The position numbers and the translations under genes are program-made. The notes beneath the pieces are model-generated. The model was not told the DNA's origin, ran no database searches, and saw only the letters and a list, made by a program, of their open reading frames with translations. From the NCBI GenBank assembly GCA_964016885.1, contig OZ024753.1:36580001-36644000 (forward strand): a stretch of DNA of 64,000 bases, read 5' to 3'. This stretch comes from Eledone cirrhosa. Its lineage: Eukaryota. The first letter of the stretch is position 1. Each line of letters opens with the position of its first letter. Positions 1,260 to 38,022 of this stretch are shown in pieces.

Positions 1260-4200
1260 ATGGATAATTGCAATCAGAAAATTAAGGCCAACGTGAAGAA
1301 TGGTTTACACACAAGAAGTGCTTCCAAGAATCGAGAGAAAAATTGTCTGAGGAAAGCCAAGAAAATCATCGAAAGGAACCGTTCGAAACCTTATCGTATT
1401 GCAGAGTATCTTACATCGGAGTATAGCAAACATCTAGAGGGTGTACTTTGTCCTAATACTCAGAGTCAAGGAAATATGAATGATACTCGACAAGAAAAGG
1501 ATGATGAGTTCAACCTTCTACAACGACAAAATCACTCCTCATGTTTTTGCTCCTTCACAAAGGTGCCATCCTCAAATCAACAACAAGATACGAAGTCTTG
1601 TTCTTGCTTAAATGTGATCAACGAAGTTCATCAGATTGATAGGTATCGGAACCTATATGACAATCATAGTAAACTGTCGGCACAAATTTCACAAAATCAA
1701 TATTACAATCAACAAAACCCTTTTGCGCATCCCGATGAGAGCCAGAAATATTCTGACTGTAACGTATCTTATCTCATGCCTCAACATTATTACCCAGCGA
1801 TACACCATCAAATGCGGCGTCACCAACAATCACACCACCAACGTCAACACCATCAAGACCAACACCAACACTATCAATACCAATACCAACAACAACTGCA
1901 GCAACAGCAACAAAGACTTCAACTAAAGCCTGAGTCATTACATAACCACACAAAACATCCATCCTTATACAATATCTATAATCACGATATTCATAAAACT
2001 GAAGACACTTCAACATCGTGTCACAGTTATAAACACAGAAACAAGGAGCATGATTCATCGAACAAACCTTACCAATTCCCTTCATCGGACATGCACAAAG
2101 ACTCACTGGACAATTCCTATCAGGGCCAAGACCTTCAAAGGTCATTGCCGGAGACACATGAGCCATATAACAATAACTCTTCAAATTACAATGAGAAAAT
2201 ATATGAACCAGCAGAGAGTCTCGTAAAAGGACATCGTACGACATTGGTTAAAGGCACGGAACCTATCAATATGAGCCTACCATGTGTGCAAAATAAGAGT
2301 AAGTATCAATGTATGGCCTTAATAAAATACTTTGATTTCTCCGGAGTACTGGTATAGCAATAAAGTAGAGACCAGTAGGTTAACTTTTACCTTATTTTAT
2401 TGATTACATAATCACTGTTATACTCATTAAGTTTCCATTCTGTGATATACCACGGGTGGATTATTCTTGTTTCCTCAAAGCCCTGCTGACATATGAATTA
2501 GTTCAAACGCCCTCACAGCATCACCATAAAGGTAAACAACACCTAACCAAAGCTCGAAGATAGTTCCAACCTTACTCTTTTCTTGCCTTCTTGAACGCCC
2601 CAGTGGTGCCAAGGTCTGAGATATTTGTGTGCGTGTATGTGTTTGTGTGTATGTGTATATGTAGAGTACCAAGTAACCAAGTACCAAGAACTTGCGAAGA
2701 AGTGCAGAGGAAAAGGCTGGCAGACATGGCTATTTCCAGTCAAGTTACGCTGCAGGGGGTTCCAGGCTCATTCGATTTGGAGAATACTCACTGCAATTGG
2801 TATGACAGGGATAGAGAAGAAGGCTGCGGTTTGCCAGATGAAAGGGCCTCTTGTTGGCTTTGAGAGGAGACACGCTGGAAGCCAGCGGTCGAAACATCCG
2901 ATGAAAGTCGAACACCGTCCGATGATATCAACGCCTTTTAGCCACGGCTAGGTTCACCGAAGGTGAATGAATAACAGGCATCTTCTTGAAGAGGTAATTA
3001 TGCCTATATATATTACATATTTCCGTATTTCAGTTGACGCAGCAGAACTCTATGGAAATCTACTTGAAGCAGGACTTATCTCAAGTCAACCAGTGTCGGA
3101 AATGTTAGCACCAGAATCCTGTGAAGAACTAAAGCTAGATTCTAAGGTATATAATAGATATATGTTTAGCCTGAGAGAAGAATTCGATATATATATATAT
3201 ATGTATTTGATATATATATATATAATATCTTTATTGAGCCCTCTTCGGATTTTAACCTTTACATTACATTTAATATTATTACTATATATATACATATATA
3301 TATATATATATATATATATATATATATATATATATATATATATATATATATATATATATATATATATAGAGAGAGAGAGAGAGAGAGAGAGAGAGAGAGA
3401 AAATTGAGGTTGGTAATGGCACATGGAATATATAAGAGACAGAATACTTTTTTGTGAAAAAACATATAATTTTATAAGGTAAGGAAATAATAAAGGGTAT
3501 AAAAAATGACCGGTTTCGATGGGTCTGCAAAAGCCATCTTTTCAAATGTTGATTAATATTAAGAAAAATTAATAATAAGAAGAGTTAAAATTTGAGATTT
3601 GAAAATTCAAGTATAAAATTCATTGTGGGATTTCATAGTAGTTTTCATCTTGGTAGCAACAAGTTGACTGCTGTGTGCCTTTCTGGTAGTGAATGTCACA
3701 CAGCAGTCAACTTGCGGTCCCAAGATGAAAACTACTATGAAATCCCACAATGAATTTTATACTTGAATTTTCAAATCTCAAATTTTAACTCTTCTTATTA
3801 TTAATTTTTCTTAATATTAATCAACATTTGAAAAGATGGCTTTTGCAGACCCATCGAAACCGGTCATTTTTTATACCCTTTATTATTTCCTTACCTTATA
3901 AAATTATATGTTTTTTCACAAAAAAGTATTCTGTCTCTTATATATTCCATGTGCCATTACCAACCTCAATTTTCTCTATAACCTTCGTTTTGTGTAGTAA
4001 ATTACACTTTTCATATATATATATATATATATATATATATATATATATATATATATATATATATGGTGGCTGCCAACTCGTTTTCGAGTACGGCCACTAC
4101 TTTATATCCATGTAGGAGAACCCCTACCGATGCGCTGAACGAGTGTGACTTTTTAGTCCAGCCAGTGACTTGAAAACTCTGGTACAAACACTACACTTGT

Positions 4201-35918: not shown

Positions 35919-38022
35919 ATGAACAGAAATAACAGCAAATACGTTTGGTGTCGGGAAGGAATTGCATATCCTAAACAAAATCAAGTATCGAACACAAGTA
36001 CCTACATAAATAAGGTACACAAAAATAATTATCACAGAAATAGTCATAGGCAACCGTACGGTTTTCCACCTGTGTATCAAAACACCTGGAGAAAAAATTA
36101 CCAACACCAGAACTTCAATCAATCGTATACTCCACAGTTTCGTAACCAACATTGTAAACCACAGTCGTATAGAAATCCTTATAAACTGCAAAATACACCA
36201 CAGCCATGGCTTCTATCCCAACCAGCAACCACGTGTATGAATCGTTATAAACTACAAAATACACAGCAATCGAGTCCTTTATCGCAACCAACAACCACGT
36301 GTACAAATCGTTATAAACTACAAAATACACAGCAATCGAGTCCTTTATCGCAACCAACAACCACGTGTACAAATCGTTATAAACTACAAAATACACAGCA
36401 ATCGAGTCCTTTATCGCAACCAACAACCACGTGTACAAATCGTTATAAACTACAAAATACACAGCAATCGAGTCCTTTATCGCAACCAACAACCACATGT
36501 ACGAATGGTTATAAACTACAAAATACTCCACAGCCACGGCCTCTCTCACAACCAACACCCTCAAGTGCAAATCAAGCAGCCCAATCTACAGTAGATACTA
36601 TAGATACAAATGGACCAAGTACGTCTAGCAACGAGACATCTTTTAATGTAAACAACCAGAATCTAACATCTTTTGATCAGCCAGATGAAATCCTACAGGA
36701 TCCAATTGTAACTTCGAATGGTATGTACTAATTATTCGTCTTTAAATGCTTAAAATTCATAATAACAAAAGTTATTATTTTGTTAAACATCGAACATTAT
36801 TTTTATACAATTATATCAACGATTTTTTTTTTTTTTTTGTTTTTTTGTTTCCGTGAACATTACAGAATCTTACGACAACATCGACGAAGGTGGACACCGA
36901 ACACAGAAACAAATCATACAAGACACAGAATCTGATAATAGTGATGATCTGAATGATGTCGAGGTAAGATCTTTTCTTTTTTAGTGTGTTAATTATTTTT
37001 ATTATTGAAATTATATTTGGTGTTTTCTTATTAAAATATTTGGGGGTTAGCATTTTTAGGACGATCATAATTAGAAAATTAGCAAAAAAAAAACCCCCCA
37101 AAAAACAGAAATCAGAGAGTTATCAATTAAAATAGTGAATATACCAGTCCTGTGAACTGTGAAAATAGGTATAGCTTTCATTATGTAAAATCTTCCCCTT
37201 TTGCTGGTCTGATATACAGTGTAAATATATGAGTTGAAAATTAAACTATTACCTTTTAAATTTTAGACAAAATTATTATTATTATTTTTTAATTAAATAT
37301 ATTTCCCATTATTTTCGAAAATAATAATTAAAAAAACAGTAACAAGTTGGGTGGAGCTTGTCAAATCGGCCGAGGACACTATATATATATATATATATAT
37401 ATATATATATATTGTTATGCTTTGGGAGGGTCATGTTGCCAATAAGAAACACACGCACCAGTTGCTTTCACTAATTCAGAAACTATATATATATATATAT
37501 ATATATGTATATATATATATATATGTATGTGTGTTTGTTGTTTACCGACACTTCAGTATGCAGGTGAGTTTGTTTACTCCGGAGTAATGTAAAAACAAGA
37601 AGTGTATGTCTACAGGTTAAAAATATTAGAATAAGAATAAACGAAGCCAATTTTAATCTCTTGTTTATATAGATCCAGCGATTCTTTGCTTAAACTTTAA
37701 TCTGTTATTTTAATAAATATTTGCTCTACGGTTGTTTATATATATTTATATATATATACATAATCCTTATCGCGCCTTCTTCGGATTTTAGTCTTCACAT
37801 TTATTATTATTACTATATATATATACCTGGATAAAATCCTTCTCTTAATGCTTACCTGTGTTTTCTCTTTTATATATATATATATATAGAATAAGGAAAT
37901 ACAAAGTAGTTGAGTTCTCGAATTGAATTACATCAATGTTTACCGTATATATAATCAATTTCTCATTCTTTTATATTTTTCAGATCAATTATGAAATATT
38001 TTTTGCCGATTGGGGTATCTAA
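35919..38022 (+). pseudogene. PCF11-like paralog D: repeat domain retained, zinc-finger exons lost (truncated gene or pseudogene)
   Basis: Exon 1 35919-36720 and exon 2 36866-36963 are open; the exon-3 homolog from 37060 reads DDHN*; no C2H2 or CxxC exons found; terminal-exon homolog 37984-38022 INYEIFFADWGI* (His to Tyr, Cys to Phe). Confidence 0.7.
36170..36560 (+). repeat. 66-bp coding tandem repeat in gene D (RYKLQNTQQSSPLSQPTTTCTN)
   Basis: Four essentially identical 22-aa units plus two diverged units. Confidence 0.92.

Follow-up and report, generated by a model that had tools for sequence, protein, structure and literature searches.

What remains of a cleavage factor when only its C-terminal end is duplicated and kept? 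The question is raised by the first 38 kb of a 64,000-nucleotide stretch of the genome of the octopod Eledone cirrhosa (GCA_964016885.1, contig OZ024753.1, positions 36,580,001 to 36,644,000, forward strand; hereafter the window, whose own numbering we use), which are occupied by four related genes, here named A to D, and one relic. Here, we show with gene models built by coordinate from the DNA alone, in which splicing is predicted, that A, B and C are intact genes that descend from a duplicated 3' end of the gene for PCF11, a subunit of cleavage factor II, on the grounds of their anatomy, shared introns and similarity.

Paralog A (1260-10065, + strand, 583 aa) has seven coding exons, with exons 1-3 at 1260-2298, 3034-3146 and 4650-4846, a fourth (6171-6349) encoding finger 1 and an RxWY motif, a fifth at 6788-6876, a sixth (8938-9030) encoding finger 2, and a seventh (10024-10065) with the last His/Cys ligands and the stop codon. 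Paralogs B (17005-12995, - strand, 571 aa) and C (24127-29090, + strand, 692 aa) each have eight, of which exon 5 carries finger 1 and RxWY (B 14722-14538, C 26967-27151) and exon 7 finger 2 (B 13741-13649, C 28195-28287); the others are exons 1-4 (B 17005-16171, 16044-15935, 15796-15569 and 15038-14896; C 24127-25303, 25430-25554, 25694-25921 and 26682-26824), exon 6 (B 14348-14263, C 27350-27435) and exon 8 (B 13030-12995, C 29049-29090). In all three genes every intron is GT-AG, the spliced frame is open with zero internal stops, and the C-terminus runs in the order C2H2 finger, RxWY motif, CCHC finger. An earlier inspection of this DNA by eye, without database searches (the sequence-only reading), had described four paralogs and a relic and quoted the finger and RxWY motifs of A to C, all of which the models bear out; its gene structures hold as GT-AG open frames, except that it missed the A exon at 3034-3146. 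Among public sequencing runs, sequence from the region of C turned up in three, all from a single study and none registered as RNA.

Where do these genes come from? Searched genome-wide, finger 1 matches four places, namely A, B, C and one on contig C4, where a complete PCF11 gene with its CID comprises 15 exons over ~22 kb. The similarity of the paralogs to this parent is limited to the last 130-160 residues (E 6e-20 for A, 2e-16 for B, 7e-14 for C), with 34-36% identity over the module. Three introns of the parent recur in A to C at identical codons, one of phase 2 ahead of finger 1 and two of phase 0 within finger 2, and the copies therefore go back to a duplication of DNA and not to an mRNA. 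The finger-2 exons exceed the cut-off of the Pfam family zf_PCFS4 (34.7 and 28.6 bits, threshold 27, C among them) and fall just short of that of Pcf11_C. By sequence, finger 2 also matches 2NAX/5M9Z, an intact finger 2 being absent from D and the relic, and a Foldseek search with the model of the Octopus bimaculoides orthologue of A returned as best matches the yeast Pcf11 finger, 2NAX and 5M9Z (E 4.9e-3, probability 1.00). The PCF11 ancestry proposed by the sequence-only reading is thus supported by the zf_PCFS4 match, the shared introns and the reciprocal similarity to the genome's own PCF11, and Pcf11_C and zf_PCFS4 are the sole domain matches of the A orthologues at E 0.05. The same reading had taken a single, CID-bearing PCF11 as the animal norm, in agreement with a phylogenetic survey that reports one PCF11 per animal examined (PMC3287031); the canonical gene on contig C4 conforms to this, although extra CID-less records exist in other animals. 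No further copies were found in the flanks searched, 200 kb on the upstream side of the window and 140 kb on its downstream side, and 11 further weak loci from the family searches were set aside, with no finger copy at E < 0.02 and one of them being a B-box protein.

None of the genes shows a CID. In-frame stops lie upstream of the ATG at a distance of 6 codons in C, 23 in B, 39 in D and 44 in A, and between this stop and the ATG no AG scores acceptor-like in B or C. In A, an acceptor-like AG is found 12 bases upstream of the ATG (score 5.7, with the 31 model acceptors ranging from 3.6 to 20.2); as the Octopus orthologues of A begin at the same Met, it fits an untranslated first exon. Pfam returned no CID match in exon 1 of A to D or in three A-type orthologues, the 12 CID matches genome-wide include none on the cluster contig, and the partial CID of the genome's own PCF11, used as a query, gave no match with E < 5 across the 404 kb spanning the cluster. 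The proposal that B and C are without a CID therefore stands, on the upstream stops, the lack of an acceptor-like AG and the empty 404 kb. A promoter had also been placed about 250 bp from C, and a 12-base block with an inverted CCAAT, identical in B (17259-17270, -), C (23848-23859, +) and D (35658-35669, +), does lie ~260-280 bases upstream; we infer that this block is a candidate promoter element. In place of the CID, the N-termini contain 22-27% Gln and Asn, and exon 1 of A has no significant homology to exon 1 of B, C or D (best E 0.12). Two suspected PCF11 remnants in the N-terminal half were rejected against shuffled controls, a motif in A exon 2 (0.8 bits versus 1.3) and a W-x-x-YK motif (-1.1 versus 3.9).

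Does the family occur outside this genome? A profile built from the finger-1 exons retrieved A-type proteins from three Octopus species (O. vulgaris CAI9726967.1, O. bimaculoides XP_014781153/4 and O. sinensis XP_036361071/2), and A is conserved in four octopod genomes. The O. bimaculoides and O. sinensis orthologues are collinear with A over the whole length, and the identity of A to its Octopus orthologues reaches 82% in finger 2 and 73-75% in finger 1, as compared with 46-47% in exon 1. In both species the X1 and X2 isoforms differ by one Ala at the fourth intron; isoform calls of this kind are normally based on RNA-seq junctions. Database names given to these orthologues are 'sex-determining region Y protein' or SRY-like (O. 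bimaculoides XP_014781153/4) and 'myotubularin-related protein'. Neither identity is tenable, since no HMG box or myotubularin domain is present and only Pcf11_C and zf_PCFS4 match, so that XP_014781153/4 should be renamed as a PCF11 derivative and not SRY. Among the matches listed (the best 150 of 171, from 1.84 billion representatives) is one B/C-type record, O. vulgaris CAI9726970.1, three accession numbers from the A-type CAI9726967.1 and on a contig equal in length to that of the A-type record. Its model loses RxWY; as an alternative frame of that stretch is codon-compatible with the motif, the record is probably frameshifted, by decay or assembly error. The family is therefore not confined to this genome, with A in three Octopus species and a B/C-type gene in O. 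vulgaris. Among the same best 150 of 171 matches there is no squid or cuttlefish paralog-type protein, a weak blank. A word-based protein search with the finger-1 exon of C gave no match at all, though the sensitive search later found the B/C-type record, and blanks from the word-based search are weak for that reason.

Phylogenies of the module place all paralogs in a single clade (100/99), which divides into an A-type and a B/C-type branch (97/98 and 98/96); the module tree took in 27 of the 54 rows of a larger tree. A sister position of this clade to cephalopod PCF11 is not demonstrated by the trees, nor does the approximately unbiased (AU) test reject such an origin (p 0.28), and dating the duplication from the trees gave no date, the branches being long and the placement of the clade ambiguous.

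What could a protein that consists of a new N-terminus and the PCF11 tail do? Our leading interpretation, held at slightly less than even confidence, is that A to C are cleavage-dead, Clp1-binding nuclear competitors of full-length PCF11. Under this interpretation, duplicates that keep both fingers and RxWY, having lost the CID, the central repeats and one Trp that contacts Clp1, would be expressed, would likely enter the nucleus and would still bind Clp1, perhaps weakened by the missing Trp, thereby drawing Clp1, and perhaps RNA, away from full-length PCF11. The sequence-only reading had envisaged variant 3'-processing factors that could bind RNA or Clp1 independently of the C-terminal domain of RNA polymerase II and change alternative polyadenylation or termination in a tissue-dependent manner. 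We favour a cleavage-dead protein over a working factor because the Clp1-contact stretch is altered and the central repeats are gone, both of which that reading had overlooked.

Several lines of evidence are consistent with retained Clp1 binding. In the yeast structure three invariant Pcf11 residues, R480, W482 and W489, contact Clp1 (PMC1761425), and R480 and W482 are reported as needed for the interaction (PMC3273803). Equivalents of R480 and W482 are present in all eight paralog rows, with RxWY invariant while the residues just after it vary. As to the fingers themselves, all four ligands of finger 1 are retained in A to C, and in an AlphaFold2 model of the O. bimaculoides A orthologue both fingers are folded (blocks of the per-residue confidence score pLDDT of about 90) and the N-terminus is disordered. 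The predicted complex between O. bimaculoides Clp1 and residues 448-584 of its A orthologue scores 0.86, against 0.01 for the best of three controls, with at least 70% of contacts shared between runs and a partner pLDDT of at least 62; in calibration, 51 of 78 solved complexes attained the mark applied, as did 2 of 108 mismatched pairs, and among eukaryotes the corresponding figures were 71 of 105 for solved complexes and 2 of 126 for unrelated pairs. The predicted interface is centred on RxWY and the helix before finger 1, and 21 of its 27 residues are identical in A of the window. Searches of the Eledone genome yielded one Clp1 locus, whose exons are mostly 90-100% identical to O. bimaculoides Clp1.

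Human PCF11 offers a close parallel for the proposed loss of activity. There, the CID is dispensable for cleavage in vitro and the repeat region essential; fragments that begin downstream of the FEGP repeats still bind both Clp1 and RNA but are unable to support cleavage, and a fragment beginning at finger 1 co-purifies with Clp1 (PMC6239180). The engineered fragments dN1123, dN1184 and dN1339 likewise comprise only the end with finger, Clp1 site and finger, the first two binding Clp1 while inactive in cleavage and the third co-purifying with it; they differ from the paralogs in being artificial, in keeping all three Clp1 contacts and in having no added N-terminus (PMC6239180). By analogy, the paralogs may be regarded as natural versions of these cleavage-dead fragments, plus a new disordered N-terminus. 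They are without the central repeat region and the helical domain of PCF11, their similarity being confined to the C-terminal module, and a loose repeat motif of our own devising has six matches in the genome's PCF11 and 1, 0, 1 and 0 in A to D. In the canonical gene (contig C4, about 377,935,200-377,935,960) this region holds short beta-type repeats with F/Y-x-G-P-like motifs, also common to cuttlefish and Lingula PCF11 and at the position of the vertebrate FEGP repeats, to which they are probably equivalent. As to nuclear entry, all seven paralog proteins examined have an R/K/H-x(2-5)-PY motif at residue 44-47, with the basic context strongest in A. The consensus of the PY-type nuclear localization signal is R/H/K-x(2-5)-PY in a disordered, basic region (PMC2408616), and the motif of the paralogs would fit such a signal.

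Other observations weigh against this interpretation. The W489 equivalent is found in none of the eight paralog rows and in 44 of 45 other whole modules, so Clp1 binding may be weak or lost. This count refers to distinct whole modules; it leaves out records lacking finger 2, of which many continue into the intron, and when these are included the second Trp is present in 78 of 133 rows. In the parent this Trp is encoded by a 43-base exon that has no counterpart in the paralogs. The lone non-paralog module without it (1 of 45) belongs to a 370-aa plant PCFS-like protein. Compared with the genome's PCF11, finger 1 of the paralogs is short by four residues and no longer has the Trp of HxDWH; its spacing from Cys pair to first His is 10 residues in all paralogs versus at least 12 in 45 of 45 others. 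The docking result carries its own cautions. It was obtained without alignments on the O. bimaculoides orthologue and not on the window proteins, canonical PCF11 shares only 12-13 of the 27 interface residues, complexes of this kind have already been solved (2NPI, 4C0B, 4C0H and 4OI4, yeast Clp1-Pcf11), and close cousins of true partners passed the mark 10 of 12 times; for these last two reasons the score of 0.86 may reflect memory, and it shows likeness rather than binding. The PY motif is short and was noticed after the fact, with a shuffle P of 0.006-0.065 per protein. RNA binding by finger 2 was not seen in one yeast study, as reported there (PMC5159653), and in another the yeast finger region took up RNA only if Clp1 was left out (PMC5737669), so that RNA binding is disputed even for Pcf11. 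Finally, the apparent frameshift in CAI9726970.1 suggests that the B/C branch may be dispensable.

Have the paralogs instead left cleavage factor II, to act as stand-alone nuclear zinc-finger proteins whose fingers bind RNA or another partner? We consider this somewhat unlikely. The universal loss of the W489 equivalent and the shortening of finger 1 in all paralogs would be expected of such proteins, as would a disordered N-terminus rich in Gln and Asn, and RNA binding by the yeast finger region only in the absence of Clp1 (PMC5737669) would suit fingers released from it. However, RxWY has stayed invariant while the following sequence varies, the predicted Clp1 complex, subject to the memory caveat, centres on this very motif, and the finger-1 region has a net charge of -1 to +2 with no extra positive charge.

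A distinctly unlikely alternative, which comes near to the sequence-only reading, is that in particular cell types the paralogs serve as working subunits of cleavage factor II, which would bind Clp1, use the N-terminus in place of the repeats and support cleavage independently of the C-terminal domain of RNA polymerase II. It would agree with the dispensability of the CID in vitro (PMC6239180), with the finger-2 surface positions needed for yeast processing (aromatic, acidic and Trp), which are largely kept in the paralogs, and with the existence of tissue-specific paralogs of the termination machinery in Drosophila (PMC11535153). Yet nothing in the paralogs corresponds to the repeat region on which cleavage by human PCF11 depends, a search of the genome found no second Clp1, and the N-termini that would have to take over appear to evolve near neutrality.

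The last point follows from comparing B with C, in which the ratio of nonsynonymous to synonymous substitution rates (dN/dS) is 0.13 over the 42 codons of the finger-2 exons 7-8 (p 0.001), rises to 0.45 when exons 2-8 are taken together (p 0.0002) and is 0.78 for exon 1 (p 0.2); A against B or C is saturated (dS about 2-4) and was not used. At the level of sequence, this shows purifying selection on finger 2 of B and C and a nearly neutral N-terminus. The introns between them are unequal, with introns 4 and 5 98% and 95% identical and introns 1 and 2 78% and 68%, and because of this difference we assume gene conversion across the finger-1 exon, the likely tract extending from exon 4 to exon 6 (B 14263-15038, -, counterpart C 26682-27435). 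In the C-terminal region, A is identical to its Octopus orthologue at 99 of 143 positions and PCF11 to cuttlefish PCF11 at 143 of 169, and the paralogs evolve faster than their parent.

Paralog D is of B/C type and comprises exon 1 (35919-36720, +), 48% identical to B exon 1, exon 2 (36866-36963, +) and, conjecturally, a last exon at 37984-38022 (+); no finger exon for it was found in genome-wide finger searches or within 140 kb downstream of the window. The dN/dS of its exon 1 is 0.93 against B and 0.65 against C, and in neutral simulations with substitutions only this exon stayed open in 0.4% of 2000 runs, while B and C each stayed open in 0 of 500. Probably D either was truncated recently or is retained as a fingerless protein. 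The relic has a finger-2 exon (19390-19298, -) in which the second Cys is changed to Tyr and whose flanks are 84% identical to C, and an exon-2 remnant (19732-19851, +) with an in-frame stop, in the opposite orientation to the finger exon. The birth-and-death turnover suggested earlier is supported by the relic, by fingerless D, by dN/dS and by the trees, and A appears to be the stable member, with the B/C/D branch turning over by duplication, conversion and decay. That the cluster consists mainly of non-functional or barely functional leftovers of a partial duplication, as argued for PCFS1/PCFS5 of Arabidopsis (PMC10839035), would suit the broken relic, the fingerless D with its dN/dS of 0.93 against B and the apparently frameshifted O. 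vulgaris model, but is highly unlikely given the dN/dS of 0.13 in finger 2 of B and C and the simulations, and is refuted for A, which stands intact and collinear in four genomes, its fingers much better conserved than its N-terminus.

How do these genes relate to known systems? To canonical PCF11 or Pcf11 (cleavage factor II; CF IA in yeast) they are alike in the order C2H2-RxWY-CCHC, in Pcf11_C and zf_PCFS4, in introns and in the fold of finger 2, and they differ in having no CID, helical domain, central repeats or second Clp1-contact Trp with its exon, in the shortened finger 1 and in the new low-complexity N-terminus; as three defining features, the CID, the third Clp1 contact and the central repeats, are missing, they are not canonical members. 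Arabidopsis PCFS1 and PCFS5 are likewise Pcf11-derived, without a CID and present beside full-length PCFS genes, and in this respect are the precedent that the sequence-only reading took them for; it is a weaker one than implied, as they are described as intronless, lineage-restricted and probable pseudogenes, whereas in octopods the introns of the ancestor are retained and A is shared by several species (PMC10839035). In insects, short Pcf11-like records of a sap beetle (Aethina XP_049824330.1), a ladybird (Henosepilachna KAK9886933-5, three adjacent loci) and a midge (Contarinia XP_031625584.1) share the finger module, with no Pfam CID match in the four records scanned, so the same kind of partial duplicate may recur there. 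The beetle records differ in keeping the second Trp and the normal finger-1 spacing, their models are unverified and some are perhaps fragments, and no starred tree support joins the insect records to the octopod clade. The testis PAF1 paralog complex of Drosophila, in which a part of the termination machinery was duplicated and took on a specialised use, is no more than an analogy, as it involves other proteins and is found near canonical Pcf11 without duplicating it (PMC11535153).

CID-less relatives of PCF11 are thus already known, and what is new here is a conserved, intron-bearing animal derivative under selection with a remodelled Clp1 site. In line with the sequence-only reading, which knew of no such family in cephalopods, we found no literature on PCF11 in octopus or on the orthologue accessions and, among the papers listed for broader queries, none that mentions Pcf11 together with a cephalopod, with subscription papers and supplements, cephalopod expression tables included, outside the scope of the search. 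If the competitor interpretation is true, a conserved truncation that uncouples the Clp1/finger module from the CID and the repeats would serve to regulate mRNA 3' ends, for which we found no description in cephalopods. The paralogs would also be a natural test of which Clp1 contacts are needed, because one of three invariant residues is gone. PCF11 levels are reported to modulate intronic polyadenylation and the expression of long genes (PMC6428223). A more far-reaching version, which we regard as unlikely, is a dedicated and conserved octopod antagonist of cleavage factor II, in which a tail-only PCF11 would capture Clp1 in particular cell types, lower PCF11 activity and shift poly(A) site choice and termination genome-wide, with the rapidly evolving branch of B, C and D adding lineage-specific versions.

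The locus is also rich in repeats. A 66-base (22-codon) in-frame tandem repeat lies in exon 1 of C (24573-25038, +, 7.1 copies), and 22-codon repeats in exon 1 of B (16342-16667, -, 4.9 copies) and of D (36214-36526, +, 4.7 copies), all as called by Tandem Repeats Finder. A 46-base tandem satellite (7-1164, 25 copies) stops ~95 bases upstream of the ATG of A and is also found at locus L027 (about 9400-10000), and a 52-base tandem repeat (18244-18942, 13 copies) lies between B and the relic. A dispersed element with a long internal inverted repeat occurs at 4320-4520, 7321-7565, 40886-41069 and 55866-56003, two of its copies within introns of A. An intron of the Clp1 gene holds an open frame of 1024 aa (L078:5313-8384), which we take to be LINE-like, and an open frame of 491 aa at 51142-52617 of the window is, judging from its motifs, presumably like a Penelope-type retroelement.

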